Assembly: GCA_945897435.1 (NCBI GenBank)
Contig: CAMDFJ010000001.1
Location: 13,072 to 77,071 of the forward strand
DNA length: 64,000 nucleotides
DNA from: Candidatus Kuenenia stuttgartensis
GTDB taxonomy: Bacteria; Planctomycetota; Planctomycetia; Pirellulales; UBA1268
Direction: 5' to 3'
In this document: positions 12,952 to 64,000 of the stretch, one piece after another
Position numbering within the stretch: the first letter of the stretch is position 1
How the letters are laid out: each line of letters starts with the position of its first letter
Translations under genes and position numbers: made by a program
The notes under the pieces: generated by a model
Told to the model about the DNA's origin: nothing
Seen by the model: only the letters and a program-made list of their open reading frames with translations
Databases searched by the model: none

Positions 12952-14568
12952 TCATTTTGCAACCCGGGCGCACTCGCTCAGGCTCGTGACACCCTCGACG
13001 ACCTTCATCAGCGCCGACTCCCGCAGGGTTCGCATCCCCGCCCTCCGGGCGGCAGCCCGCAGGTCTTCGATGGAGGGCCGGCCAATGAGCAGGTCGCGGA
13101 CACCCTTGTCGAACACCATCAGTTCGTAGATGCCGGTCCGGCCCCGAAACCCGGTGCCGTTGCATTCCGGGCAGCCCTTGTCATTTTCGCGGTAGAAGAC
13201 GGTCGCCCGATCGGCCGGGATGCCGTAGCGACGGAGATCCTCCGGAGCCGGCTTGTAGGCCTGCTTGCACTTCGGGCAGAGAACCCGCAGCAGCCGCTGC
13301 CCGAGCACGGCCGTGACCGCCGCCTGGATCCGGGTCGCCTCGATGCCCATGTCGAGCAGCCGGGTGACGGTCGTGGCGGTGTCGTTGGAATGCAGCGTAG
13401 AAAAGACGAAGTGGCCAGTCACGGCCGCCTCCATCGCGATCTCCGCCGTCTCCTTGTCGCGAATCTCGCCCACCAGGATCACGTCCGGATCCTGCCGCAG
13501 CACCGACCGCAGGATCTTGGCGAAGGTCAGGCCCGCTGCCGTGTTGACGGCCGTCTGGGAGATGTTTTCGAGGCGATACTCGATCGGATCCTCGATCGTG
13601 AGGATGTTTCGCGAGAGCACGTCGATCTCGCTGATCGCGGAGTAGAGCGTCGTCGTCTTGCCGGAGCCTGTCGGCCCGCAGACGATCAGCATCCCGTCGG
13701 GCTGGTTGATGATCGCCCGCAACGTCTTGAGCATCGACTCCCGCATGCCGATGCCGTCGAGTCCGGCCTTGACGATCCCGCCGTCGGAATCGAGCAGACG
13801 CAGCGACATCTTCTCGCCGAAGCTCGTCGGCCCGGAGGCGGCACGGATGTCGTACTTCCGCCCCTCGAAGAGCGCGGCGAAGGTTCCATCCTGGGGCAGC
13901 CGCCGCTCGGCGATATCCATGTCGCCGAGGACCTTCGTGGCCGAGACGACGGCCCGGCCCATCGCCCCGTTGAGTGTCGAGATCGTCTGCATGATGCCGT
14001 CGATCCGGTAGCGGATCTGCATCTCGTCGCCGGCCTTCGGCTCCATGTGGATGTCGGTGGCCCGCATCTGCAGTGCGGTGAGCAGGATGCCCTGCACCGA
14101 ACGGATCGCAGTCGATGTCTCGCGGTCGAGATCGCCCTCGTCGCGGCCGTCGTAGGGCTGGCCATTCTTCTTCAGAAGCACGATCTGCACGGCGGCCTTG
14201 GCAACGGCCGGCCGGCCGCCGATCGGCGGCAGAAAACGTTCGACATGGGCCTCGATGCCGAGGCCCCGCGCGGCCCGGCGTGCGAGCAGGTCCTCGGGGG
14301 CTGCATGGGCCTCGCGGGCGAGCAGATAGGAGACGACCGCCAGCGGCACCAGCGGCAGCAGTTCCGGCAGCCAGCCGAATCCGCCCAGACAGGTTGCGAC
14401 AAAGAAGACCACGCCGCAGAGGGTGACGATCCCCTTCCAAAACCGGCTGCGGCCGAAGATCTCGTGGGCGTCCCGCTCGACCCAGAGGCACGCGGCGGCC
14501 CATGCGGCCGCAAGCAGCGTCCACAGCGCTCCCCGGACCGCGAAATGCACGAGGGCCTCGGTCGTCAT
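12952..14568 (-). CDS. GspE/PilB-family type II/IV secretion ATPase with an N-terminal transmembrane region
   Basis: Walker A GPTGSGKTTTLYS, Asp box ILTIEDPIEY, Walker B DPDVILVGEIRD, His box STLHSND, and tetracysteine CPKC...CPEC. The first ~110 aa contain about three hydrophobic helices. ATG at 14568 (MTTEAL); GTG at 14652 is an alternative. Confidence 0.85.
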   Translation of the reverse strand: MTTEALVHFAVRGALWTLLAAAWAAACLWVERDAHEIFGRSRFWKGIVTLCGVVFFVATCLGGFGWLPELLPLVPLAVVSYLLAREAHAAPEDLLARRAARGLGIEAHVERFLPPIGGRPAVAKAAVQIVLLKKNGQPYDGRDEGDLDRETSTAIRSVQGILLTALQMRATDIHMEPKAGDEMQIRYRIDGIMQTISTLNGAMGRAVVSATKVLGDMDIAERRLPQDGTFAALFEGRKYDIRAASGPTSFGEKMSLRLLDSDGGIVKAGLDGIGMRESMLKTLRAIINQPDGMLIVCGPTGSGKTTTLYSAISEIDVLSRNILTIEDPIEYRLENISQTAVNTAAGLTFAKILRSVLRQDPDVILVGEIRDKETAEIAMEAAVTGHFVFSTLHSNDTATTVTRLLDMGIEATRIQAAVTAVLGQRLLRVLCPKCKQAYKPAPEDLRRYGIPADRATVFYRENDKGCPECNGTGFRGRTGIYELMVFDKGVRDLLIGRPSIEDLRAAARRAGMRTLRESALMKVVEGVTSLSECARVAK

Positions 14569-14718
14569 TCGTCGCTTTCCACGGGTCGGGCGACAGCGGT
14601 CGAAGGCCGCGGAGTCGAAGCCATTCCCGTTCGAAAAGGTTGTACCCTGCACCGCGATGCCGCGAAAGCCGCGGCCGATTCTCCAGCCATGCCGGCTGCC
14701 GGGCTATGATTGGGGACG

Positions 14719-16107
14719 ATGATCGCAAACGCCAAAAAACAGTTTCTGCACGACGCCGACGAGCATGTCCGCGACACGGGCCACCGGGCCTTCGTGCAGC
14801 GGGCCCTCGGTGGCTACTACACGAGCCGCGACACCCAGAAGGCCCGCTACCGCGACTGGGAGCATGCCCGCGACGCGGCCAGCCTGGCGAAGTGGTCGGC
14901 CGTCAACAGGCTCGATGAACTGCTGCCGCGGTTCGTCGCAAACTTCGAGGCCAATGGCGGCAGGGTGCACTGGGCCCGCGACGCCGAGGAGGCCCGCAGG
15001 ATCGTGCTCGACCTGCTGCGGGCCGCCAAGGCCCGGGCCGTGATCAAGAGCAAGTGCATGACGAGCGAGGAGATTCACCTCAACGCCGCGATGGAGCAGG
15101 ATGGCTACGGCGTGGTGGAGAGCGACCTCGGCGAGTTCATCCAGCAGCTCCGCGGAGAGCCCCCTTATCACTTCGTCTTTCCCTGCATGCACGTTCGTCG
15201 TGGCGAGATCAGCGATCTGTTTGGAAAGCACCTCGGCACACCGCCGACCGACAGCCCCGAGGAACTGACGATGATCGCCCGCCGGCACATGCGCCGGCTC
15301 TACGTCGATGCCGACGTGGGGATCACCGGCGCCAACTTCCTCGTCGCCGAGACCGGCCAGATCTCGATCACCGAGAACGAGGGCAACGCCCGACTGACGG
15401 CCGCGCTGCCGCGGGTGCATATCGCGATCTCGGGAATCGAGAAGGTGGTCGAGCACCTCGACGACCTCGCGGTGCTCCTGCCGATGCTGGCGACGGCCGG
15501 GGCCGGCCAGCCGATGACCTGCTACAACACCCTCTACGCGGGGCCGAGACGCGAGGGGGAATGCGACGGCCCCGAGGAGATGCACCTCGTGCTCCTCGAC
15601 AACTCGCGGACTGCGATCCTCGCAGATCCCGAGCAGCGGGACAGCCTCCACTGCATCCGCTGCGGAGCCTGCCTCAACGTCTGCCCGATCTTCAAGAACG
15701 TGGGCGGCTTCACCTACGGCACGACGTACCAGGGGCCGATCGGCTCGGTAATCACGCCGCACCTCCGCGGCCTCGCCGACTGGAATCATCTCTCCGGGGC
15801 GAGTTCGCTCTGCGGGGCCTGCACCGACGCCTGCCCGGTGCGGATCGACATCCACCACCACCTGCTCCACAACCGCCGCAACGCCGCCCGCACTGCGCCA
15901 CACTGGCTGGAGCGGATCGGGCACCGGGTGTTCGTCGCCGTCGCCAGCCGCCCCTGGCTCTTCGCCACAGGGGGCGCGGCCTTCCGGAAAACCCTCTGGC
16001 TGGCGAAGAAACTGCGTCCGCCCTTGTTGCGCGACTGGCTCGCCAGCCGCGACCTGCCCGCGGCCCCGAGCCGCAGCTTTCGCGACGAGTGGAGTAGGCG
16101 CCGATGA
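14719..16107 (+). CDS. lutB: Lactate-utilisation protein B (4Fe-4S + LUD domain, YkgF-like)
   Basis: CIRCGACLNVCPIF and CGACTDACPV ferredoxin motifs after a LUD/DUF162-like region. ATG at 14719 (the track start at 14710 is TTG). Confidence 0.85.
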   Translation: MIANAKKQFLHDADEHVRDTGHRAFVQRALGGYYTSRDTQKARYRDWEHARDAASLAKWSAVNRLDELLPRFVANFEANGGRVHWARDAEEARRIVLDLLRAAKARAVIKSKCMTSEEIHLNAAMEQDGYGVVESDLGEFIQQLRGEPPYHFVFPCMHVRRGEISDLFGKHLGTPPTDSPEELTMIARRHMRRLYVDADVGITGANFLVAETGQISITENEGNARLTAALPRVHIAISGIEKVVEHLDDLAVLLPMLATAGAGQPMTCYNTLYAGPRREGECDGPEEMHLVLLDNSRTAILADPEQRDSLHCIRCGACLNVCPIFKNVGGFTYGTTYQGPIGSVITPHLRGLADWNHLSGASSLCGACTDACPVRIDIHHHLLHNRRNAARTAPHWLERIGHRVFVAVASRPWLFATGGAAFRKTLWLAKKLRPPLLRDWLASRDLPAAPSRSFRDEWSRRR

Positions 16108-16862
16108 CCGCTCAGGGCAACCCGGCCGGCGAAATGTCGGCCCGCGACACGATCCTGGCGAGAATCCGTGAGGCCCTGCGGGTGCCGGCGCCGATGCCGC
16201 ACTTCCAGAGCCAGGAGATCGAGAAGGGACACGCGGCCGGAGCCAAAAGCAGCACCGGGCTGCCGACCCTCGCTGTTTTGCCGCTCGATGTCGCCAAGCC
16301 CTGGCTACCCGATGGCGGCGAGACGCCGGCGGAGCGACTGCGGATCCTGGCCGAAAATCTTGAAAAACTCCGGGCGATCGTCCACCGCCTGCCCGACATG
16401 ACGGCCGCGGCCGACTGCCTTTTCGCACTGGCCCGCGAACGCGACTGGAAGGTGGTCGCCTACCACGGCCATCCGCTCGTCGAACCGCTGCTCTCGGGCG
16501 TGCCCTGCAGCACGCTGCGGGTCGATGTCGACTTCGACAAGAACCGGCTCGAGGCCTGCGACGCGGGAATCACCGCCTGCGAGTCGCTCGTGGCCCAGAC
16601 CGGATCGATCCTCGTCTCGAGCGGCACCTGTGGCGGCCGGGCGCTTTCGATCCTGCCCCATGCCCACGTGGTGATCGCCACGGTCGACCAGGTCGTCTCG
16701 ACGCTCGGCGACGCGCTCCACCAAGCCCAGGCCCGCCACGCCGGCCGCCTGCCGAGCATGCTCTCGTTCATCACCGGCCCGAGCCGCACCGGCGACATCG
16801 AGCGGATTCTCGTCCTCGGAGCCCACGGCCCGAAGGAACTGATCCTGCTTCTGGTTGGATAG
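16104..16862 (+). CDS. lutC: Lactate-utilisation protein C (LUD domain, YkgG-like)
   Basis: ATGA overlap with the lutB stop. ARDTILARIREAL N-terminus and ...ITGPSRTGDIE near the C-terminus, typical of LutC. Confidence 0.8.
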   Translation: MTAQGNPAGEMSARDTILARIREALRVPAPMPHFQSQEIEKGHAAGAKSSTGLPTLAVLPLDVAKPWLPDGGETPAERLRILAENLEKLRAIVHRLPDMTAAADCLFALARERDWKVVAYHGHPLVEPLLSGVPCSTLRVDVDFDKNRLEACDAGITACESLVAQTGSILVSSGTCGGRALSILPHAHVVIATVDQVVSTLGDALHQAQARHAGRLPSMLSFITGPSRTGDIERILVLGAHGPKELILLLVG

Positions 16863-16867
16863 CGAGG

Positions 16868-16905
16868 CCTGACCACGTCCGATGTGAGACAGGCTTCAGC
16901 CTGTT
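16868..16905 (+). repeat. REP-like palindromic element, copy 1
   Basis: CCTGACCACGTCCGATGTGAGACAGGCTTCAGCCTGTT, 6 nt after the lutC stop. Hairpin GACAGGC-TTCA-GCCTGT. Confidence 0.9.
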
Positions 16906-17021
16906 CATAAGACTCCAGCTTCGGGGGCGGCAAAAGTCTCGTCGCTGTGGCCCTCGAGGACTCGGTCCAAACGCTCCTCGAGCGTTCGCCGACCCCCTCG
17001 CCTGCCCGCGTGGGATAGGAG

Positions 17022-17059
17022 CCTGACCACGTCCGATGTGGGACAGGCTTCAGCCTGTC
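17022..17059 (+). repeat. REP-like palindromic element, copy 2
   Basis: CCTGACCACGTCCGATGTGGGACAGGCTTCAGCCTGTC. Differs from copy 1 at 2 of 38 positions and lies in the same orientation. Confidence 0.9.
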
Positions 17060-17230
17060 TGGCGGCTTGAAAGGCTATCGCAACGTATTTGCCTTTCATC
17101 ATCAGACGCGCCTAGCATTCGAAGAGACGACGCGGCCCGTACAAGAGCCGCTTTTCCGGCTTGCACGATCGAGATGGCAGTGAGCCGGCCGCCCGCCTTG
17201 GCGGCCGACGAAGACGGGAGTAGAGATCGC

Positions 17231-17707
17231 ATGTTTGCGAATGTGGCACGCATCGGGCACGGCATCCGGGGTTTCGCCTCCGTCATGCCCTCCGTACGTG
17301 TGACCCACGCGCTCCTGTTTCTCGCCGCCTCGATCGTGTCGCCGGGCGTCTGCGATGCCTGCATGGCCCCATGCCATGCTTCGGGCCTCGCGTCGTCCGT
17401 CGCTGCAACCCATTGCTGCGGGTCGCCCGAAGGGGCGCTCCCAGTCTGCATGGCCGATGTCGGCGACGGCGATACGAACACCTGTGGCCAGTCTGCCGCT
17501 GGCTGTCGCTGCCAGATGGCCCCGGCAGACGCCGCGCCGATGGCGATCGGAAAACGCCTCCCGCCACCGGTGAGGGCGGGCGATCTGGCGGCTTCCCCGG
17601 CGGCGTTCGCGGCCGACCCATCGCTGCTGGTTCGCCAGGCGTTTTCCGTCTCCCGACCGCCGCCAACCCGTCCGCTGCGGGTGCTCTACGGTGTCTGGCG
17701 GAATTGA
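17231..17707 (+). CDS. Hypothetical Cys/His-containing protein with a probable N-terminal signal/anchor
   Basis: ATG at 17231, inside track ORF 17036..17707. Hydrophobic THALLFLAASIVSPGV followed by CDACMAPCH...HCCGSPEGALPVCMADVGDGDTNTCGQSAAGCRCQ. I recognise no domain. Confidence 0.35.
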   Translation: MFANVARIGHGIRGFASVMPSVRVTHALLFLAASIVSPGVCDACMAPCHASGLASSVAATHCCGSPEGALPVCMADVGDGDTNTCGQSAAGCRCQMAPADAAPMAIGKRLPPPVRAGDLAASPAAFAADPSLLVRQAFSVSRPPPTRPLRVLYGVWRN

Positions 17708-17806
17708 GCGGATCGGCCCGGCAGGTTTTTCCTGCCTGTCGATCGTGCAGGCGGGTGTTCCGCCGGCACCTGCTCGATTCTGGTTCCACATCGAAGGAGA
17801 TTCACC

Positions 17807-17953
17807 ATGTCTGCGATTTTTCTCTGGGCCCTGATGGCCCTTGCTCCGGCGGCCCAGGCCGCCTGTGACACCTGCGACTGCAACTGCTGCGGCTGCTGCG
17901 ACACAGGGACGTGCAACTGCACGACCTGCAGCTGCACCTGCTGCACGAAGTAG
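17807..17953 (+). CDS. Small cysteine-rich exported peptide (48 aa; not in the ORF track)
   Basis: AGGAG (17795-17799) lies 7 nt before ATG 17807. Translation: MSAIFLWALMALAPAAQA/ACDTCDCNCCGCCDTGTCNCTTCSCTCCTK, stop TAG 17951-17953. 41 of 48 codons end in G/C, matching genome bias. Two hairpins follow. Confidence 0.55.
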   Translation: MSAIFLWALMALAPAAQAACDTCDCNCCGCCDTGTCNCTTCSCTCCTK

Positions 17954-17966
17954 TTCGGTCCACGGT

Positions 17967-17998
17967 CGGGCACACGACGGCGACCCCGCGTGTGCCCG
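17967..17998 (+). terminator. GC-rich hairpin downstream of the small Cys-rich ORF
   Basis: CGGGCACACG / CGTGTGCCCG form a 10-bp stem (17967-17976 with 17989-17998) around a 12-nt loop. There is no U-tract, and REP copy 3 follows. Confidence 0.35.
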
Positions 17999-18016
17999 GC
18001 CGGCCTCCGAGACCAT

Positions 18017-18034
18017 GACAGGCTGAAGCCTGTC
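18017..18034 (-). repeat. REP-like palindromic element, copy 3 (core)
   Basis: GACAGGCTGAAGCCTGTC flanked by CCATG... and ...CAAGATCGG. Reverse orientation relative to copies 1 and 2. Confidence 0.85.
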
Positions 18035-18326
18035 CAAGATCGGATGGCGCCCACGGAATAACCGATACAGCCGCGTGATTTTTCCGCTGGCTGACTTTTT
18101 CGGTCCGCGAAGATCGATCTTCTGCTGTGAGTTTGCCGCTCGCGCAAACCTGGGTGGTCGCGGAACAGCGTCATGGAAGGGTTCCGCTTCCAACCCGGGG
18201 ATGTCGGCGGTGGTCTCGGCCGGGCTCACTGAGGAACGCCACCAACTGGGGATGGCGGCTCCTCGGAACGCCTGGAAATCGTGATCGCGAAACGTGTGCG
18301 TGTTCTTTTTTTCTCCGGAGGTTTCT

Positions 18327-19844
18327 GTGAAGAAGCGTTTGACATTCAGTTTCCTGCCGTGGGTTGCGGCCGCCGGCGTGTGCCTCGGCGGATCCTTCGC
18401 CCGCAGCGACGAGGGTTCGGTTCTGGTGGAGGGTGATGCCGCCGCCGCAGCGCCGGCCGCCGCCGCGTCGGAGGCTCCTGCCTCCGCCGACGCCTGCATG
18501 AAGACGGTGAAGGTGTGGAAGGTTGTCCCGGAGATCCGGGAAGTGGAGAGCACGGAGTGGACGACCGAGGTGCGTGAGCGTTCGTTCACGGTCACCAAGA
18601 AGGTGCCGCGGATCGAGGAGCGGACGCGGAACTACACGGTGATGGTCCCGGAACAGCGATCGAAGTCGGTGAACTACACCGTCAACATCAACGTTCCCGA
18701 GACCCGGACCGCGACCTACAACGTCTCGGTTCCCTACACCGAGAGCCGTGAGGAGTCCTACACGGTCTGCGTGCCGGTCAAGGAAGAGCGGACCCGGACC
18801 TGGAAGGTGAACGTCCCCTACACCGAGCAGGTCGAGCAGGCCTACACGGTGATGGTGCCGGTCACGGAGCAGCGGACGGCCAGCTACAAGGTGAACGTGC
18901 CCTACACCGAGCAGCGGACGGCCAGCTACAAGGTGAACGTGCCCTACACCGAGCAGGTCGAGCAGGCCTACACGGTGAACGTGCCCTACACCGAAGAGAT
19001 GACCGGCTATCGCACGGTTTCGAAGCGGGTGCCCGTCAAGAGCACGAAGACGGTGACCTGCCGCGGCGGCCACTGGGTGACCGAGGCCAAGGAGATTTCC
19101 GCCAACGGCAAGTATGACGCCGCCGGCAATCCCTGCTGCCCGAAGGTCGTCTGCTGCCGCAAGTGGGTTCCCACCTGCGAGACGAAGGAGATCGAGGTCA
19201 CGATGTGGAAGGTCGAGTGCGAGCAGGTTCCCTACACCTACTGCGTGAAGAAGAGCCGCTGCGAGCAGCGGACCCGCACTGTGTGTGTCCACAAGACCCG
19301 CTGCGAGGAGCGGACCCGCAACTACTGCGTGACCCTCTCCCGCTGCGAGGAACGGACCCGCAACTACTGCGTCACGAAGATGGTGCCGGAAGCCCGGACC
19401 CGGATGATCTGCGTGAACAAGTCGCGCTGCGAAGAGCGGTCGGCGACCTACTGCGTCACGAAGATGGTTCCGGAAACCCGGACCCGCACGGTCTGTGTCC
19501 GCAAGTGCCGCACCGAAACTCGCACCCGCGAGTACACGGTCAACACCTGCGTTCCCGAGACCCGGACCAAGGAGGTCTGCTACACGGTGATGGTGCCGGT
19601 CCAGAAGACCGCCAGCTACAGCGTGTGCGTCAGCGACAACGTCTCGGAGACCAAGTCCGAGTCGTATGTCGTCCGCGTGCCCAAGAAGGTCACGAAGTCG
19701 GTCTGCGTCAAGGTTCGCAAGTGCGTCGAGGAGCAGGTTCCGGCGAATGACGGTTGTGGCTGTGCCGACTCGGCCGGCGACAACGGCAACGGCGGCAACG
19801 GTGGTCTTCTCGGCCACGGCCTTCGCTGCCGCAAGGGCTGCTAG
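18327..19844 (+). CDS. YTV-repeat secreted protein with a Cys-rich C-terminal repeat half
   Basis: GGAGG lies 5-6 nt before GTG 18327, giving (M)KKRLTFSFLPWVAAAGVCLGGSFA as signal peptide. More than 15 repeats of the type R..YTV.VP / SYKVNVPYTEQ. The second half has C..RTR..CV repeats. The YTV repeat family is known from Rhodopirellula (Pfam YTV, recalled). Confidence 0.8.
   Translation: MKKRLTFSFLPWVAAAGVCLGGSFARSDEGSVLVEGDAAAAAPAAAASEAPASADACMKTVKVWKVVPEIREVESTEWTTEVRERSFTVTKKVPRIEERTRNYTVMVPEQRSKSVNYTVNINVPETRTATYNVSVPYTESREESYTVCVPVKEERTRTWKVNVPYTEQVEQAYTVMVPVTEQRTASYKVNVPYTEQRTASYKVNVPYTEQVEQAYTVNVPYTEEMTGYRTVSKRVPVKSTKTVTCRGGHWVTEAKEISANGKYDAAGNPCCPKVVCCRKWVPTCETKEIEVTMWKVECEQVPYTYCVKKSRCEQRTRTVCVHKTRCEERTRNYCVTLSRCEERTRNYCVTKMVPEARTRMICVNKSRCEERSATYCVTKMVPETRTRTVCVRKCRTETRTREYTVNTCVPETRTKEVCYTVMVPVQKTASYSVCVSDNVSETKSESYVVRVPKKVTKSVCVKVRKCVEEQVPANDGCGCADSAGDNGNGGNGGLLGHGLRCRKGC
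18867..18950 (+). repeat. Perfect 42-bp tandem duplication inside the YTV gene
   Basis: GAGCAGCGGACGGCCAGCTACAAGGTGAACGTGCCCTACACC at 18867-18908 and again at 18909-18950. It encodes EQRTASYKVNVPYT twice. Confidence 0.95.
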
Positions 19845-19880: not shown

Positions 19881-21275
19881 TCACGCGGGCCGGACGGGCA
19901 ACCGTCCGGCCCGCGGTCGTTTGTGGCCGGTTTCGTGCCGCAGGCGGCGGTCCATCGACTCGACCAGGCGTTCGAGTCGGCGGCGGTATGAATGGTGCTC
20001 GACCTCGAGCAGATGCCGCGGCGAGTCGATGTAGCGAATCTTTCGGCGGGGCTCGGGCCGCTGCCGTATTCGATACAGCCAGGCGCTGGCCCGGGGACTC
20101 GTGCGGCTGGCCGCCGCCATTCTGGCCACGAGGCGGGCCTGGACGTCGGTGATGCCCCACTGACCGCTGTCGGGCTGGATCAGGCCGACGACGGCGATGT
20201 CGTCGCGGGTTGGATGGAGGAGGTTCATGAACAGCCGCGGGCAGCCGCCGGCGACCCGCAGGTGCTCGTCTTCGATGAATGGATGCGTGATCCGGTAGCC
20301 GGTCGCGGCGATGACGACGTCGAAGACCTCGCGGCGACCGTCGCGAAACAGGACGCTCTCCCCCTCGAATGCGGCCACGTCGGCGGCCGGCTCGATCGCC
20401 CCCGCGTCGATCTGGCCGCAGAGATGCTCGTTGACCACCGGATGGGTCTCGAAAAGGGCGTGGTCGGGCCGCGGCAGCCCGTGCCGCCATGGCAGACCGA
20501 TCGTGCGGTCGATCGCCCGCAGGCCGACGAGCCTGCGCAGCCAGAGCGGCGCCCCCATCCTCAGCAGCCGTTCGCCCCGCAGGTCGGCGGGCCTGCCGAG
20601 CACGAACCTCGGCACGATGAAGTAGCCGCGGCGGATCGAGAGCACGGTTCGGGCCGCATGCCGGGAGCATTCGACGGCGATGTCCGAGCCCGAGTTGCCG
20701 CCGCCGATCACGAGCACCCGCCGGCCGGCGATCTCGACCGGCTGCGTGGGGGAGGCATACTCGGCCGCATGAAGCAGCCTGCCTGCGAACCGGCCCGGGA
20801 TCTCGGGCCAGCGGGGCTCGCGATTGTGGCCCGAGGCGATCACGACCCCCGCATACCGCCGCGGTTCGCGGCCGGAGGCATGCACGATCCAGCCGCCGGG
20901 GCAAGAGTCACCGGCGGCCGGCGCCGGCTCCAGTCGCTCGACCGAGATGCCCGTCGCGATCTTCGACGTGAGCCCGAAGTGCTGTGCGTAGCGACGCAGA
21001 TAGTCGAGACACTGCTGATGGTCGGGATAGGCGGGCCAATTCCGGGGCATCGGAAAGTCGGAGAACTCCGTCAGCCGCCTGGAGCTGATCAGCCGGGTCG
21101 AGGCGAAGACCCGGGATGACGGCGAGCCAAACCGCCAGTTGCCGCCGAGAGCATCCTCGCGTTCGAGACACTCTGCCTCGATTCCGACCGCGAGCAGGTT
21201 TTTCAGGGCGGTCAGCCCCGAGGGCCCTGCGCCGATGACGCACCAGCTGCCCGGAGACGAGACGGTGTCAGGCAT
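19881..21275 (-). CDS. Flavin-containing (class B) monooxygenase
   Basis: CVIGAGPSGLTA (FAD GxGxxG), FAGRLLHAAEY (FMO-type FxGxxxHxxxY) and VLVIGGGNSGSDIA (NADPH GxGxxG). ATG at 21275 overlaps the bioF stop (ATGCCTGA). Confidence 0.8.
   Translation of the reverse strand: MPDTVSSPGSWCVIGAGPSGLTALKNLLAVGIEAECLEREDALGGNWRFGSPSSRVFASTRLISSRRLTEFSDFPMPRNWPAYPDHQQCLDYLRRYAQHFGLTSKIATGISVERLEPAPAAGDSCPGGWIVHASGREPRRYAGVVIASGHNREPRWPEIPGRFAGRLLHAAEYASPTQPVEIAGRRVLVIGGGNSGSDIAVECSRHAARTVLSIRRGYFIVPRFVLGRPADLRGERLLRMGAPLWLRRLVGLRAIDRTIGLPWRHGLPRPDHALFETHPVVNEHLCGQIDAGAIEPAADVAAFEGESVLFRDGRREVFDVVIAATGYRITHPFIEDEHLRVAGGCPRLFMNLLHPTRDDIAVVGLIQPDSGQWGITDVQARLVARMAAASRTSPRASAWLYRIRQRPEPRRKIRYIDSPRHLLEVEHHSYRRRLERLVESMDRRLRHETGHKRPRAGRLPVRPA
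19885..19914 (+). terminator. 13-bp-stem hairpin downstream of the YTV gene (overlaps the 3' end of the convergent FMO gene)
   Basis: GCGGGCCGGACGG-GCAA-CCGTCCGGCCCGC followed by GGTCGTTTGT. The U-tract is weak. Confidence 0.4.
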
Positions 21276-22437
21276 GGCAGAACTCGGTGATCGCATCGGC
21301 AAGTCGCTCGAGGTCGGAAGTGGTGTGGTGCCAGGAGAGGCTCGCCCGCACGAGGCTGCCATTTTCCGGCACGCTCGGCGGTCGAATCGCAGGCACGAAG
21401 AAGCCCTGATCGGCGAGCCGGGCCGCCAGGGTCACGGCTGCCGCCGGGCTTCCGGCGGCAATCGGCACGATCTGGGCTTCGGCGGCGCCAGAGTCGATGC
21501 CGCGGCTGTGGAGCCTTTCGCGAAAGTCGGCGGCCCGGGCGAGCAGTTCGCGGCGTCGGGCTGGTTCTTCGGCGAAAAGGCCGATGGCCCGGGTTGCCGC
21601 CGCTGCGACGGCCGGCGGATGGGCCGTGGAGAAGATCCAGGCCCGCGCGGTGTGACGCAGCCAGTGGATCAACTCTGCCCCGCCGGCCACGAACCCACCG
21701 GCAGCCCCGACCGCCTTCGAGAGGGTGCCGATCCGGATCTGGACGCCGTCGGCGCAGCCCATCTCTTCGACGAGCCCGCTGCCCCGCCGGCCAAACACTC
21801 CCGTCGCATGAGCCTCGTCCACGAGCAGCATCGCGTCGTGCCGTCGGGCGAGGTCGCTGAGGCCGTTCAGGGGGGCGATCGTGCCGTCCATCGAGAACAG
21901 CGAGTCGGTCACGATCAGCCGGCGCCGGCTGTCGGCGGCCGCCGCGAGCAGGCGATCGAGGGCGGAGAGATCGCGGTGGGGATAGATGCAGACCCGGGCC
22001 CGGGAGAGCCTGCAGCCGTCGATGATGCTCGCGTGGTTGCGTGCGTCGCTGGCGATCAGGTCGTCGGGGCCGACGAGCGCGGCGATCGTGGCCGTGTTGG
22101 CGGCGAAGCCGCTGGGGAAGACGAGCGCCGCCTCGACGTCGAGCATTCCGGCGATCGCGGCCTCGAGCCGCTCGTGGGCCAGCGAGTGGCCGCTCACCAA
22201 GGGGCTCGCTCCGGCCCCGAAGCCCTCGGCACAGGCCCCCTTCGAGGCGGCCTTCGTGAGCCGCACGTCTCCGGCATAGCCGAGGTAGTCGTTGGAGCCG
22301 AAATTGAGCAGCCTGCGGCCGTCGAGCACGACCTCGCGGCCCTGCCTGCCGTCCCGCACCCGGGCGGGCCGTTCGAGGCCGGCGGTGCGGATCACCGCGA
22401 TCTCATCGTCGATCCAGCGCAGTGATCTGGGAAGCAC
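21268..22437 (-). CDS. bioF: 8-amino-7-oxononanoate synthase-type alpha-oxoamine synthase
   Basis: LLNFGSNDYLGYA, SGHSLAHERLE, LIVTDSLFSMDG, VDEAHATGVFG and GTLSKAVGAAGGF (PLP lysine). GTG start at 22437, 2 nt after the EVE-gene stop. The longer track ORF (to 22821) would overlap the EVE gene. Confidence 0.8.
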   Translation of the reverse strand: MLPRSLRWIDDEIAVIRTAGLERPARVRDGRQGREVVLDGRRLLNFGSNDYLGYAGDVRLTKAASKGACAEGFGAGASPLVSGHSLAHERLEAAIAGMLDVEAALVFPSGFAANTATIAALVGPDDLIASDARNHASIIDGCRLSRARVCIYPHRDLSALDRLLAAAADSRRRLIVTDSLFSMDGTIAPLNGLSDLARRHDAMLLVDEAHATGVFGRRGSGLVEEMGCADGVQIRIGTLSKAVGAAGGFVAGGAELIHWLRHTARAWIFSTAHPPAVAAAATRAIGLFAEEPARRRELLARAADFRERLHSRGIDSGAAEAQIVPIAAGSPAAAVTLAARLADQGFFVPAIRPPSVPENGSLVRASLSWHHTTSDLERLADAITEFCHA

Positions 22438-22934: not shown

Positions 22935-22952
22935 GACAGGCTGAAGCCTGTC
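22935..22952 (-). repeat. REP-like palindromic element, copy 4 (core)
   Basis: GACAGGCTGAAGCCTGTC followed by CCACATCGGGCGGCGTCAGG, the reverse complement of the extended consensus. It lies between the TamB-like stop (22968) and the EVE start. Confidence 0.9.
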
Positions 22953-33794: not shown

Positions 33795-33812
33795 GACAGG
33801 CTTCAGCCTGTC
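33795..33812 (+). repeat. REP-like palindromic element, copy 5 (core)
   Basis: GTGGGACAGGCTTCAGCCTGTCATGG, 23 nt after the stop of paralogue B. Confidence 0.9.
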
Positions 33813-44088: not shown

Positions 44089-44106
44089 GACAGGCTGAAG
44101 CCTGGC
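44089..44106 (-). repeat. REP-like palindromic element, copy 6 (degenerate core)
   Basis: GACAGGCTGAAGCCTGGC followed by CCACTTCGGG, between the convergent SHD1 and pgk genes. Confidence 0.75.
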
Positions 44107-45444: not shown

Positions 45445-45462
45445 GACAGGCTGAAGCCTGAC
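45445..45462 (-). repeat. REP-like palindromic element, copy 7 (degenerate core)
   Basis: GACAGGCTGAAGCCTGAC, between the gyrB stop and the pgk start. Confidence 0.7.
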
Positions 45463-60689: not shown

Positions 60690-62639
60690 ATGCGATCCGA
60701 GCCGTCCGCTTCGACCGCCGCAAACGCCTTCCTGCAGCGGCTGTTGGGGTCGCCATGGCTCGTCGGGGCGGGGTTCGCGGTGCTCGCCTTCGCGATCTTC
60801 TGGCCCTGCCTCGACGGTGGCCTGATCTGGGACGACAGCGGGACCTTCATTACCGAGAACAAACTCAATCGCGACCCGCTGGGCCTCTGGAAGATCTGGT
60901 GCTCCTTCACCGCCCCCGACTACTGGCCGCTGACCTACACGGCATTTTGGGCGGAGTGGCGGCTCTTCGGTGAGGCTCCCCGCGGGTATCACATCGTCAA
61001 CGTCCTGCTCCATGTGATCACCGCCCTGCTCGTCTGGGGCGTCCTCGAGCGGCTTTCGATCCGGCAGGCCCTGATCACTGCCCTCATCTTCCTTGCCCAT
61101 CCGCTCAACGTGGAGTGCGTCGCCTGGATCGCGCAGCAGAAGTCGTTGCTCGCGACGGCCCTGATGTTTGCGTCGGCTCTGGCCTATCTGCGTCGGGATT
61201 CCGGGTCGATTGGCGGCAAGGAGGGCAGTGCGACTGCCTGGTATGCGGCCACACTCTGCCTGTTCGTGGCGGCGCTTGCCGCCAAGACCTCTGTCGTGAC
61301 ATTCCCTCTGGCACTCCTCGGATATGAGTGGCTCTGGCGGGGAGCGGAGCGTCGGCGACCGCTGGCAACGCTCCCGTTCTTCGCGGTCGCCTTTCTGTTT
61401 GGTCTGCTCACCGTGCTCTGCAACCTGCATCACGGCACGTCCTCGGTGCACGACACAACCGCTCTGGAGAAGCTGATCAGGGCCTCATGGGCTGTCTGGT
61501 TCTATCTCTGGAAAACGGTCTGGCCGCTCGATCTCTGCTTCGTTTACCCGAAGTGGCGGGTCGATCCCTGGTCGCCAGCCGCGTGGATCCCGGGGTTTGG
61601 GCTCGTCTGCCTGCTGGGTCTGGCCTGGTGGTGCCGCGGATCCTGGGGCCGGCCGGCGCTGGCCGGACTGGGCTGGTTTCTGCTGCTGATCCTGCCGGCG
61701 TCCGGCCTCGTCGACATCTACTTCCTCAGTTTTGCCCCGGTCGCGGATCACTATGCCTACCAGTCGCTTCCAGGCCTGATCGCATGGCTGGTGCATGTCG
61801 CGACTGCCGGCATGGAAAGCCTGGCAGACCGAGTGGTGCCGCGGGCCCTCAGAATGCCCCTCATCGCAGGCCTGGCAACCCTGCTGGTTGCCGCATTCGC
61901 CTGGATCTCCCACGACGTCAGTCGCCGTTACGTTGACGAGGAGACGATCTGGCGGCATACGATCGCGCACAATCCCGAGAGTGAGGTCGCCTACAACAAT
62001 CTGGGCGCGATTGCCCGATCCCGCGGCAACGACGAAGAGGCGATCGCCTGCTTTCGGGAGGTCGTGCGGATTCAGGGCCAGGTCACCACGACGGCCCGGG
62101 GAACGGTCAACTACCGGGGCATGATTGCGCTCTCACACTATCGGGCAGGGCGGCTCGCGGAGGCGGCCCTGGAACTCGACGGCCTGCTGGCAAGCGACGC
62201 CTTTCAGAAGGGAAACCACGAGCCGAAAGGGATCGTGGGTATCGGCAATCTTCGCGGCAAGGTGGCCGAACTGCTCGGAGATTCCAGCCTCGCTGCCGCC
62301 TGCTATGCCAAGTCGTTCGACGTGCTGCAGGTCGAAAACACCGAGGCGGCGGGCTACTGTCTGCTCGCCGATGTGAGGCGGCGCTTTGGCGACCGCGGTG
62401 GGCAGGATGCCTATGCCGCCTTGTCGGACGTGACGGCCCGCTATCCAGGAACGCTCGCCGCCTCCCGGGCCCACCACGACGCCGGCCTGATCATGCTGCG
62501 GGCCGGCAGGCCGGCAGTCGCCGTGGCCCACTTTCGCAAGGCAATCGAACTCGAGCCCCGGGCCACCGATTCACGGGATCAATTGGCCGTGGCCGTCGAG
62601 GCTACCGCCAATGAGACGGAATCAGCGAACCCGAGATGA
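60690..62639 (+). CDS. TMTC/PMT-like polytopic glycosyltransferase (GT-C fold) with C-terminal TPR repeats
   Basis: IWDDSGTFITENK..., YWPLTYTAFWAEWRLFG, YHIVNVLLHVITALLVW and FLAHPLNVECVAWIAQQKSLL match the DUF1736/TMTC-type pattern. AYNNLGAIARSRGNDEEAIACFREVVRI is a TPR. Confidence 0.65.
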   Translation: MRSEPSASTAANAFLQRLLGSPWLVGAGFAVLAFAIFWPCLDGGLIWDDSGTFITENKLNRDPLGLWKIWCSFTAPDYWPLTYTAFWAEWRLFGEAPRGYHIVNVLLHVITALLVWGVLERLSIRQALITALIFLAHPLNVECVAWIAQQKSLLATALMFASALAYLRRDSGSIGGKEGSATAWYAATLCLFVAALAAKTSVVTFPLALLGYEWLWRGAERRRPLATLPFFAVAFLFGLLTVLCNLHHGTSSVHDTTALEKLIRASWAVWFYLWKTVWPLDLCFVYPKWRVDPWSPAAWIPGFGLVCLLGLAWWCRGSWGRPALAGLGWFLLLILPASGLVDIYFLSFAPVADHYAYQSLPGLIAWLVHVATAGMESLADRVVPRALRMPLIAGLATLLVAAFAWISHDVSRRYVDEETIWRHTIAHNPESEVAYNNLGAIARSRGNDEEAIACFREVVRIQGQVTTTARGTVNYRGMIALSHYRAGRLAEAALELDGLLASDAFQKGNHEPKGIVGIGNLRGKVAELLGDSSLAAACYAKSFDVLQVENTEAAGYCLLADVRRRFGDRGGQDAYAALSDVTARYPGTLAASRAHHDAGLIMLRAGRPAVAVAHFRKAIELEPRATDSRDQLAVAVEATANETESANPR

Positions 62640-64000
62640 TGCCGCGAGCCGATCGGCCTCGGCCTGCTCGATCTCCTCGCCGCAGCGGACGAGCCGGGCG
62701 GAGTTGAAGATCACGACCAGTCCGCTGGCGATGTGGAGGAAGGCCGCCGTCACGGGCGACACGTATCCCGCCCCGGCCAGCCCGAGAAAGACGACGATGA
62801 ACAGGGCCCCGATGATCATGTTCTGACGGATCACGCTGATCGTGCGGCGGGAGAGTTCGATCAGAAACGGAATCCGGTTGAGGTTGCTGTTCATCAGGGC
62901 GATGCTCGCCGAATGGATCGCCACGTCGCTGCCGGCGGCACCCATCGCGATCGAGATGTCGCCCGCGGCGAGGGCCGGGGCGTCGTTGACGCCGTCGCCG
63001 ATCACGGCCACGCGATGCCCCTTGGCCTTGAGTTCGTCAACCATTTCCAGTTTTTCGTGCGGCAGCACCTCGGCCTTGAACTCGCTGAAGTGCATCTGGT
63101 CGGCGATCCGACGGGCGACGCTTCTGCGGTCACCGGTCAGGATCACGAGCCGCTTGAGACCCAGATTCTTGAGCCGATCGACCGCCTCGGCCGCCTCGGG
63201 GCGGGCGTTGTCCTCGAGGCCGATCCAGCCGGCGAGCCGGCCATTTTTCACGACATAGAGCACGCTCATCCCGTCGGCATCGTCGCTCGACTGGATCCGC
63301 TCAACGGCGGCAACCTCGGCGTTGGAAAGGCCGGCGTCACCGGTCGTGAGCCATGAGCCGCGGCCGACCATGATCCGGTTGCCGTCGATCGTGGCGATCA
63401 CACCGCGGCCGGCGATCTCCTCGAAGGCCTCGGGGCGGGGAAGGGGGATGTTGGCCCGGCGGGCCATCTCGGTCACGGCCCGGGCCACCGGGTGGCGGCT
63501 GTCCTGCTCAGCCGTGGCCGCCAGTCGGAGGAGTTCGGCGGCCTCGACGCCCTCGACCGGGGCCAACCGGCTGACGGAGAGGATGCCGGTCGTCAGCGTG
63601 CCCGTCTTGTCGAACACGATCGCCGAGAGGTTGCGGGCCGCCTCGAGCGTGACCACGCTCTTGACGAGCACGCCGAGCCGGGCGGCGGCCGAGAGCCCGG
63701 CCACCATCGCCGTCGGCGTGGCGAGGATCAGGGCGCTCGGGCAGGCCACGACGAGCATCGCGATCGCCCGGCTGAAGGCGGTGTCGGGGTCGCTTCGCAG
63801 GGCAAAGAAGAGAACGATGCCGACGAGCATCAGCACCGTCGGCGTGTACCAGACGGCGTATTGATCGACGAGACGCATGATCGGCGTGCGGGTTCGCTCG
63901 GCCTGCAGGATCAGGTCCTTGACCCGTCCGAGGAGCGTGTCGCCGCCGGCCTTGGTGACCTCGATATCCATCACGCCGGTGAGGTTGATCGTGCCGCCGA
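62622..64000 (-). CDS. P1B-type (heavy-metal) P-type ATPase, 5' part lies beyond the window end
   Basis: VFDKTGTLT (phosphorylation site), GDGVNDAPALA and VACPSALILATPTA (a CPx-type TM6 motif, here CPS). The reading frame is still open at base 64000. Confidence 0.85.
   Translation of the reverse strand, partial: GGTINLTGVMDIEVTKAGGDTLLGRVKDLILQAERTRTPIMRLVDQYAVWYTPTVLMLVGIVLFFALRSDPDTAFSRAIAMLVVACPSALILATPTAMVAGLSAAARLGVLVKSVVTLEAARNLSAIVFDKTGTLTTGILSVSRLAPVEGVEAAELLRLAATAEQDSRHPVARAVTEMARRANIPLPRPEAFEEIAGRGVIATIDGNRIMVGRGSWLTTGDAGLSNAEVAAVERIQSSDDADGMSVLYVVKNGRLAGWIGLEDNARPEAAEAVDRLKNLGLKRLVILTGDRRSVARRIADQMHFSEFKAEVLPHEKLEMVDELKAKGHRVAVIGDGVNDAPALAAGDISIAMGAAGSDVAIHSASIALMNSNLNRIPFLIELSRRTISVIRQNMIIGALFIVVFLGLAGAGYVSPVTAAFLHIASGLVVIFNSARLVRCGEEIEQAEADRLAASSRVR

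Follow-up and report, generated by a model that had tools for sequence, protein, structure and literature searches.

A cysteine-dense peptide gene and its obligate partner form a candidate metal-buffering cassette in Planctomycetia

Introduction

What is a 48-residue protein for when almost half of its C-terminal part is cysteine? The question is raised by a short gene, here called pep, in a 64,000-nucleotide stretch of contig CAMDFJ010000001.1 from Candidatus Kuenenia stuttgartensis; the whole stretch is referred to as the window. A preliminary description of the window, made from the sequence alone, had read pep as an unannotated gene for a signal peptide followed by a 30-residue peptide with metallothionein-like cysteine spacing. 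Here we report that pep is a real protein-coding gene with purifying selection on its cysteines, that it is strictly coupled to an upstream gene, orfX, in an obligate two-gene cassette, and that in relatives this cassette repeatedly adjoins a P1B ATPase of the Cu(I) type. The most likely role of the peptide, which we hold at about even odds, is that of a thiolate-based, metallothionein-like buffer that would hold copper and other soft metals outside the cytoplasm together with OrfX.

Most of what is known of how bacteria deal with copper outside the cytoplasm comes from Proteobacteria (CusF, CueO, CopC/D, Csp1 and bufferins), and Planctomycetes have barely been explored in this respect. A literature search on periplasmic metallothioneins or cysteine-rich copper peptides in Planctomycetes found nothing relevant. 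The family described here counts no fewer than 47 clusters of the peptide and 134 of its partner. It is conserved and yet nameless, and no Pfam or NCBIfam profile covers it. It is also chemically extreme and directly testable, the peptide being small enough for synthesis, so that direct biochemistry is feasible.

Results

The translation of pep reads exactly as first described, MSAIFLWALMALAPAAQA-ACDTCDCNCCGCCDTGTCNCTTCSCTCCTK, 48 residues followed by a stop codon (Table 1). The last 30 residues contain 13 cysteines, the 43% originally noted, and 12 of the 13 are encoded by TGC. In 100 dinucleotide-preserving shuffles of the window the maximum was 5–8 cysteines per stop-free stretch of 30 residues, and the window holds no second open reading frame (ORF) of such cysteine content. 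G or C ends 41 of the 48 codons, giving a third-position GC content (GC3) of 0.85, which matches the 0.85–0.90 of confident neighbouring genes. The AGGAG reported 7 nt upstream of the ATG is present, and homologues carry an AAGGAG/AAAGGA-like motif at the same distance from the start codon. The core contains neither an aromatic residue nor histidine, and its CxC, CC and CxxC motifs, from which the metallothionein-like spacing had been read, are conserved throughout the family.

The N-terminal consensus M-x-x-[LF]-x-L-W-A-A-[LM]-A-L-x-P is kept in all parts of the family alignment. The hydrophobic stretch is short (about 12–15 residues), contains proline and is followed by small residues and an acidic flank. 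Most likely this N-terminus is a Sec signal peptide, whose removal would release a peptide of about 30 residues and 43% cysteine outside the cytoplasm. The AQA-A site fits such a signal, yet the n-region is not basic. An upstream in-frame ATG that would supply a basic n-region was rejected as the start codon, because it is in frame in only 31/65 sequences.

A scan seeded with LutB, taking one genome per species, gave 80 loci, mostly from metagenome-assembled genomes (MAGs) of freshwater Pirellulales. An in-frame pep homologue occupies the same site in three of these loci (L005, L039 and L040), and in-frame syntenic homologues are also present in L081–L087. A word-indexed homologue search with the single window peptide gave no match, and exact look-ups of the proteins of the window gave none either. 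An exhaustive phmmer search gave six matches, two of which are called homologues (P0004 and P0006). The P0006 loci have the same LutABC-orfX-pep-YTV order as the window, where YTV denotes a repeat-protein gene, and on the short P0004 contig orfX directly precedes pep. The remaining matches (P0001–P0003 and P0005, 947–1961 aa) aligned over 8–12 short stretches and were treated as compositional rather than as relatives; P0001 and P0003 are CDxxDNDCDG-repeat surface proteins. Profile searching, with E-values of 1e-18 to 1e-6 for family members, brought the number of protein clusters to 47, each labelled 'hypothetical' and none with a match in Pfam, NCBIfam or PDB. Homologues occupy about 90 loci from metagenomes or MAGs; all are from Planctomycetia and all are unnamed. 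The claim that the gene is unannotated holds in part: no identical product is on record for the window peptide and pep goes uncalled in some genomes, but homologues have already been called elsewhere as 'hypothetical protein'.

Family members share the core motif C-x2-C-[DE]-CC-G-CC-[DE]-[TS]-G-x-C-x-C-x2-C-x-C-x-CC, or more generally C-x2-C-x-CC-G-CC-[DE]-[TS]-G-x-C-x-C-x2-C-x-C-x-CC, behind the conserved hydrophobic N-terminus. The window peptide aligns with this motif over its full length and has every core cysteine. It is the shortest full-length member among those aligned; most members carry a C-terminal extension, '...ECPTAG...GCCGSGCCxK'. Some members depart from the common layout. In the variant P0041 (107 aa, on a 1015-bp contig) the peptide is fused to a dockerin-like domain (PF00404), while L154/L155 have a reshuffled core, CPRCDCPQCDCQHCDCCDCCESGCCELGCCRK, and L172 has an internal deletion.

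Among 72 distinct DNA sequences, the 12 core cysteine columns are 99–100% cysteine with alternation of TGC and TGT, and the columns between them hold 5–14 different residues each. The pairwise ratio of nonsynonymous to synonymous substitution rates (dN/dS) has a median of 0.39 and lies below 1 in 97% of pairs. Indels among the homologues are multiples of three. Together, the conserved frame, the synonymous changes in cysteine codons, the dN/dS values and the frame-preserving indels settle the coding status and the strand of pep. Conservation of frame and synteny and a dN/dS below 1 had been proposed as checks in the preliminary description, and both were borne out.

Pep has no counterpart in Pfam, NCBIfam or PDB. 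Across the window peptide and 38 family members no Pfam entry was matched at E ≤ 10, the metallothionein families (including PF00131 and PF02069) among them, in agreement with the earlier statement that the peptide is unrelated to SmtA/BmtA. BLASTP against human MT2A gave E = 1.5. Pep fails the defining tests of each known family considered and is, as judged from sequence, a family of its own.

The orfX family comprises at least 134 clusters, all from Planctomycetia/Planctomycetota or unassigned. OrfX has no match in Pfam, NCBIfam or PDB, and no Pfam domain was found in any of these clusters. The proteins share a basic n-region and a hydrophobic helix, which give them an N-in, C-out look. They also have short Cys/His motifs (CDAC or CD(R)GCC, CC, in some cases CPLC, and CRCQ or PCHCQ), a low-complexity linker that varies, and RPxR[VI]LYGVWRN as their invariant C-terminus. 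A longer gene model for orfX, a 223-aa ORF at 17036–17707, was rejected; its first 65 codons begin in an element resembling a repetitive extragenic palindrome (REP) and are unconserved, conservation starting only at ATG 17231.

A metagenome scan with an orfX profile gave 80 further loci, and those with at least 350 bp of room were counted for pairing. In 73/73 loci with enough room pep follows orfX on the same strand, 86–223 nt downstream; the distance in the window is 99 nt. The pair is found in unrelated genomic contexts, suggesting that the functional unit is orfX plus pep. As far as seen, this two-gene family is undescribed and occurs so far only in uncultured, mostly freshwater Planctomycetia.

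The cassette is not fixed in place. Frameshifted orfX remnants without pep lie at the site between lutC and the YTV gene in L002 (12265–13037) and L029 (4985–5798), indicating that the cassette is an accessory module that can be lost. It appears to be decaying at this site in some lineages. The MAG CANFQO01 has no cassette between lutC and YTV (L025) and has one beside CopA (L098); thus the location in the window is one of several.

The neighbouring ORFs of the cassette were clustered, and lineages were defined as orfX clusters at 80% identity, of which 48 were informative. In 17/48 lineages the gene for a P1B-type ATPase comes less than 700 bp after pep; it is the sole strongly recurrent neighbour. 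The cassettes linked to it have at least eight different upstream contexts, including a DEAD-box helicase, Hcp/ClpV of the type VI secretion system (T6SS), a 1300-aa protein and a PVC-type haem protein. The linked ATPase has the Cu(I) signature CPC / N-x6-YN-x4-P / MxxSS. Its N-terminus carries YHS and HMBD domains, and against the 'copper-translocating' model TIGR01511 it reaches 593 bits (cut-off 397). Other genes follow the cassette more rarely: a flavin oxidoreductase of the Old Yellow Enzyme type in about seven loci and a CorA-like transporter in two. MNIO/DUF692 and DUF2063 are absent from the called-gene lists of homologous loci and form no recurrent neighbour cluster. A radical-SAM gene is present in one locus only (L098, 4 kb away). 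For the window it had been stated that no radical-SAM or lanthipeptide enzyme is adjacent to pep; none lies within about 12 kb, nor does an MNIO, DUF2063 or YcaO gene.

In the major subfamily (L088–L178), 56 of 76 distinct loci have GAACC-N16-CGTAGAAT or GAACC-N16-CGTA(GAAT) about 35–45 nt ahead of the orfX start, against a background rate for GAACC-N16-CGTA of 0.043 per 500 nt. Promoters of extracytoplasmic function (ECF) sigma factors have as their hallmark AAC in the -35 element and CGT in the -10 element, and the motif looks like a promoter of this type. No copy of it was found upstream of copA. The window has a tentative promoter-like element of another kind (Table 1). A similar block in L005, TTTGCCTTT...CGCCTAGTATTCGA, gives the shared form TTGCCT-N18-TAG(C/T)AT; a consensus sigma-70 scan found nothing in this region of the window.

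The spacer between orfX and pep is structured. In the major subfamily UGAAUCG, at the orfX stop, pairs with CGAUUCA just before the pep Shine-Dalgarno sequence, and two hairpins are enclosed: one is variable, and the other, CCACG-N-UCAC[ACGUC]GUGA-CGUGG, is invariant. Pairing is kept in 98.4% of cells, and five pairs show compensatory double changes; 0/500 shuffles were as good, and slid controls reached 28–45%. The window spacer differs in sequence from the major subfamily and has the same architecture, with a fold of -55.9 kcal/mol (z = -4.6). Rfam gave no match for the spacer or for any other part of the window. The structure may have a role in differential stability or in translation of the peptide cistron.

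A strong hairpin also follows pep. In the major subfamily it is a canonical intrinsic terminator, GGCGGCGGGGGAC-GAAC-GTCTCCCGCCGCC plus a T-run, and loci with the terminator between pep and copA are L098, L101–L107, L118, L125, L134, L140, L168, L175 and L176. Co-transcription of the cassette with copA was considered and is unlikely given this terminator. The cassette is therefore probably its own transcription unit, even beside copA. In the window, the 10-bp-stem hairpin first described after the pep stop was recovered; for the 95-nt stretch behind the stop the folding energy is -55.7 kcal/mol (z = -5.9). This hairpin has no T-run and so is not a canonical intrinsic terminator.

Discussion

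From sequence and gene context we infer export, metal binding, copper specificity and a role for OrfX. The short, hydrophobic, proline-containing N-termini of both proteins would act as Sec signals. Mature pep would lie outside the cytoplasm and bind soft metals, chiefly Cu(I), through its thiolates in the periplasm, sequestering metal that is expelled by a CopA-type pump or enters from outside. OrfX, largely disordered, signal-bearing and equipped with Cys/His motifs, may be a partner for loading, transfer or anchoring.

Each part of this proposal has its own support. A role in copper handling is suggested by the Cu(I)-type P1B ATPase that adjoins the cassette in 17/48 lineages, which also lends indirect support to the metallothionein-like idea of the preliminary description. 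The CorA-like transporter after the cassette in two loci points the same way. Export is suggested by the hydrophobic N-termini of both proteins, the basic n-region of OrfX and the dockerin-like fusion in P0041. The metal-buffer reading follows from the metallothionein-like composition, with CxC, CC and CxxC motifs in a core that has no aromatic residue and no histidine. Stress-type regulation, in the major subfamily, is suggested by GAACC-N16-CGTA upstream of orfX, for which CorE and SigF, discussed below, are precedents.

Several observations weigh against a copper buffer outside the cytoplasm. The adjacent ATPase is absent in 31/48 lineages. The window cassette itself has LutC upstream, the YTV-repeat gene downstream and no adjacent copper pump, and the sole P1B ATPase of the window, at a distance of 45 kb, belongs to another subtype. 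Where a pump does adjoin, a canonical terminator stands between it and pep, and co-transcription is not obvious. GAACC-N16-CGTA is missing in the window subfamily (window 17000–17230, L005 and L097). The absence of a basic residue from the pep n-region, noticed at first in the window copy, holds for the whole family. Pep has no homology to any characterised metal-binding protein in Pfam, NCBIfam, PDB or BLASTP searches. AlphaFold2 (AF2) gave no confident fold for pep, with a mean confidence (pLDDT) of 54 and, at that low confidence, no predicted helices in the core; for OrfX (pLDDT 52) only the N-terminal helix, residues 17–35, was confident and the rest was mostly disordered. Finally, free thiols so near to one another would be prone to oxidation in the periplasm, favouring disulfides or modification. 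This expected oxidation keeps two alternatives alive, a disulfide knot and a ribosomally synthesised and post-translationally modified peptide (RiPP); both are weakened by what is known of the cassette.

It is unlikely that pep is a disulfide-knotted, secreted bacteriocin, toxin or signal without a role in metal handling, OrfX being a membrane-associated immunity or processing partner. Bacteriocins and their immunity proteins are commonly encoded in such a layout, with a small secreted cysteine-rich peptide next to a small membrane or signal protein. The distribution of the cassette is patchy, some relatives have only a decayed form, with orfX frameshifted and pep lost, and T6SS genes adjoin it in some loci. 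However, the window peptide has an odd number of cysteines, and a cysteine density of 43–50% leaves almost no other surface. The residues between the cysteines are unconstrained, unlike those of receptor-binding toxins. This explanation also leaves the Cu(I)-ATPase adjacency unaccounted for, and no dedicated exporter or protease is conserved.

Quite unlikely, too, is a RiPP precursor in which the N-terminus would be leader and signal at once, as it is in bufferins, and the cysteines would be modified by a distant maturase, or by OrfX as a new maturase or chaperone. MNIO/DUF692, DUF2063, radical-SAM, LanB/C/M and YcaO genes recur in none of the cassette contexts, and pep matches neither DUF2282 nor other precursor families. 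OrfX, the sole conserved partner, has no enzyme-like domain and is predicted to be mostly disordered. As for a lanthipeptide or ranthipeptide (SCIFF) in particular, there is no LanB/C/M or radical-SAM maturase in the window neighbourhood. A precursor would, on the other hand, suit the presence of an obligate partner gene, the conservation of the pep N-terminus (L-W-A-A-[LM]-A-L-x-P) beyond that of a generic signal peptide, and the [DE]-[TS]-G motif conserved within the core. Signal-bearing cysteine-rich precursors with a role in copper handling are known (PMC11626156, PMC12452194).

A cytoplasmic location would solve the thiol problem, since the reducing cytoplasm keeps thiols free. Pep would then be a membrane-tethered metal chaperone or sink with an uncleaved anchor and its cysteine tail inside, feeding Cu(I) to CopA; the n-region that is not basic and the cytoplasmic YHS and HMBD metal-binding domains of the neighbouring CopA fit this arrangement. 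We consider it highly unlikely, because the hydrophobic stretch of pep is short, contains proline and is followed by small residues as in cleavable signals, the acidic flank contradicts the positive-inside rule, and the n-region of OrfX is basic in the classical manner, giving that protein an N-in, C-out look.

We give equally little credence to a periplasmic thiol, redox or sulfur peptide, for instance an oxidant sink or a carrier of persulfide or polysulfide, that does not bind metal. The very high thiol density, the Old Yellow Enzyme-type oxidoreductase after the cassette in about seven loci and the CPLC motif of some OrfX proteins point that way, but thioredoxin-fold, Dsb and sulfur-transferase genes do not recur near the cassette, and the association with the Cu(I)-ATPase is stronger.

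That pep is a spurious ORF, a chance frame in a GC-rich spacer or the shadow of an opposite-strand gene (many ORFs overlap here, including minus-strand 17102–18598 and 17686–18174), can be dismissed, since it is refuted by frame-specific conservation, synonymous changes in cysteine codons, dN/dS below 1, a GC3 that follows the plus-strand frame and the 73/73 co-occurrence with orfX.

Among known systems, the metal-buffering peptide proposed here would work most like a bufferin or an exported metallothionein. Bufferins (BufA1/BufA2) are MNIO-modified periplasmic copper-binding RiPPs with an N-terminal Sec-type signal; they belong to DUF2282 or BUF_6/12Cys, have 4–12 cysteines in 80–120 aa, and need MNIO and a DUF2063 partner for conversion of cysteine to thiooxazole (PMC11626156, PMC12452194). 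Their operons were expressed experimentally by the plasmid-supplied sigma factor SigF (pSigF) (PMC11626156). Like them, pep is a small cysteine-bearing peptide with a signal-type N-terminus in a small operon, and bufferins do buffer periplasmic copper. Pep differs in that it matches neither DUF2282 nor BUF, that none of its loci has an MNIO or DUF2063 gene, that the domain-less OrfX is its sole partner and that its cysteine density is 43–50%.

Metallothioneins (bacterial SmtA/BmtA, mycobacterial MymT) resemble pep in being short, dominated by cysteine and free of aromatic residues, in their CxC, CC and CxxC motifs, and in the lack of a predicted fold when metal is absent. Pep fits the sequence side of the operational definition of a metallothionein, namely low mass and high cysteine content in CxC/CC/CxxC motifs without aromatics; the other side of that definition is the formation of metal-thiolate clusters, which pep would have to form. 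Its CC-x-CC ... C-x-CC pattern resembles the alpha-domain of vertebrate metallothioneins. Known bacterial metallothioneins are cytoplasmic; pep departs from them in its signal-like N-terminus and obligate partner gene. To our knowledge its cysteine density is above that of any known metallothionein.

Proteins of the CusF, CopK, CopG and PcoE type are folded domains that use methionine, histidine or few cysteines. They are small, signal-bearing and genomically tied to copper export, as pep is, but there is no sequence relation and pep uses cysteine only. Csp1 is a Tat-exported, cysteine-lined four-helix bundle of about 120 aa (DUF326) that stores Cu(I) (reviewed in PMC7558416). Many cysteine thiolates for Cu(I) outside the cytoplasm, a feature of Csp1, are what is proposed for pep, whereas mature pep has about 30–65 aa, no twin-arginine motif, no predicted helices and no Pfam match. 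As regards control, the ECF sigma factor CorE (ECF44) governs copA and the copper regulon in Myxococcus xanthus (PMC4937300). The ECF-type motif of the major subfamily may put the cassette under similar control; unlike the CorE regulon, the cassette has no linked sigma factor gene, and the window copy is without the motif.

A fuller version of the copper-buffer proposal is tentative, and we lean against it as a whole. It holds that the cassette is a copper-defence system of Planctomycetia built on an unmodified, Sec-exported 'periplasmic metallothionein' of the highest cysteine density known, which a dedicated, disordered Cys/His partner would load or handle; the system would be switched on by an ECF sigma factor in most lineages and tuned by the conserved RNA structure of the spacer. 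If this is true, bacteria would have in pep their first exported peptide of the metallothionein type, and bufferins a counterpart that is not a RiPP. An unmodified, exported peptide that is about half cysteine would raise the question of how thiolates stay functional in an oxidising compartment. Further questions would be the job of the obligate partner and the control of the pair through an ECF-type promoter and a structured spacer.

Features of the window

Gene order in the window was established by GC3 frame analysis and Pfam, and the features are collected in Table 1.

Table 1. Coordinates of the cassette and of other features in the window
Feature	Position	Strand	Remarks
orfX, partner gene, 158 aa	17231..17707	+	95% identical to P0052, a called protein of equal length; N-terminal signal/transmembrane helix, motifs CDAC, HCCG and CRCQ, low-complexity linker, invariant C-terminus RPLRVLYGVWRN
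pep, Cys-rich peptide gene	17807..17953	+	48 codons and stop; product MSAIFLWALMALAPAAQAACDTCDCNCCGCCDTGTCNCTTCSCTCCTK
pep signal-peptide-like hydrophobic N-terminal segment	17807..17860	+	MSAIFLWALMALAPAAQA; family-wide consensus; putative cleavage after AQA
pep Cys-rich core	17861..17950	+	ACDTCDCNCCGCCDTGTCNCTTCSCTCCTK; 13 Cys in 30 residues; from alignments and per-column codon analysis
pep Shine-Dalgarno sequence	17795..17799	+	AGGAG, 7 nt before ATG
Promoter-like element (tentative)	17089..17118	+	TTGCCT-N18-TAGCAT, about 110 nt before orfX; read from sequence
Structured orfX-pep spacer	17699..17782	+	GCUCGAUUC, upstream of the pep Shine-Dalgarno sequence, pairs with the orfX stop region; two hairpins enclosed
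Strong hairpin after pep stop	~17957..18005	+	10-bp core CGGGCACACG/CGTGTGCCCG; unique in window
REP-like palindrome, downstream of cassette	18017-18034		GACAGGCTGAAGCCTGTC
REP-like palindrome, upstream of cassette	17042-17059, 16888-16905		GACAGGCTGAAGCCTGTC
REP-like palindrome, further copies	22935-22952, 33795-33812, 44089-44106, 45445-45462		GACAGGCTGAAGCCTGTC
Type II secretion/type IV pilus-type ATPase (T2SSE)	12952-14652	-	Pfam
LutB	14710-16107
LutC-like gene	16104-16862
YTV-repeat protein	18294-19844	+	PF07639, planctomycete family
Flavin monooxygenase	19881-21362	-
P1B-type heavy-metal ATPase	62622-64000	-	runs off right window edge

The cassette of the window is placed between lutC and the YTV-repeat gene and is flanked by REP-like hairpins; the frame analysis had left a weakly coding ORF between the LutC-like gene and pep. 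The REP hairpin that had been described after the pep stop is truly repeated, with seven sites in the window against 0.07 expected, and its copies bracket the cassette. The order T2SSE-LutB-LutC-[variable gap]-YTV is kept in planctomycete loci of the LutB scan. A functional tie of the cassette to the YTV gene or to lutBC was rejected, because the cassette is found in many contexts without them.

The P1B ATPase at the window edge has an unusual transmembrane motif, CPS in place of CPC. Its best match is a Cd-family model, and it is 39% identical to the cassette-linked CopA.

Other cysteine-bearing products are encoded near the lutC-YTV site. The YTV-repeat protein has a signal peptide and is itself cysteine-rich, with 'CVxKxRCEERTRxYCV' units in its C-terminal half, and its gene is syntenic with lutBC across the clade. 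Just upstream of the YTV gene many relatives have a different, conserved zinc-ribbon-like ORF of 62–69 aa (CPICxGETxEIRAKLxCRxCGxILETCCEGGPM), found in L001 (6913–7239), L002 (13022–13219), L004 (3887–4090) and L082 (10417–10614) as well as in L019, L026, L028, L029 and L041; it is missing from the window (17954–18293). Upstream of the YTV-repeat gene, the window (about 18096–18150), L081 and L028 share a non-coding block that is conserved, TTTTTCGGTCCGCGAAGATCGATCTTCTGCTGTGAGTTTGCCGCTCGCGCAAACC, and is probably the leader or promoter of that gene.

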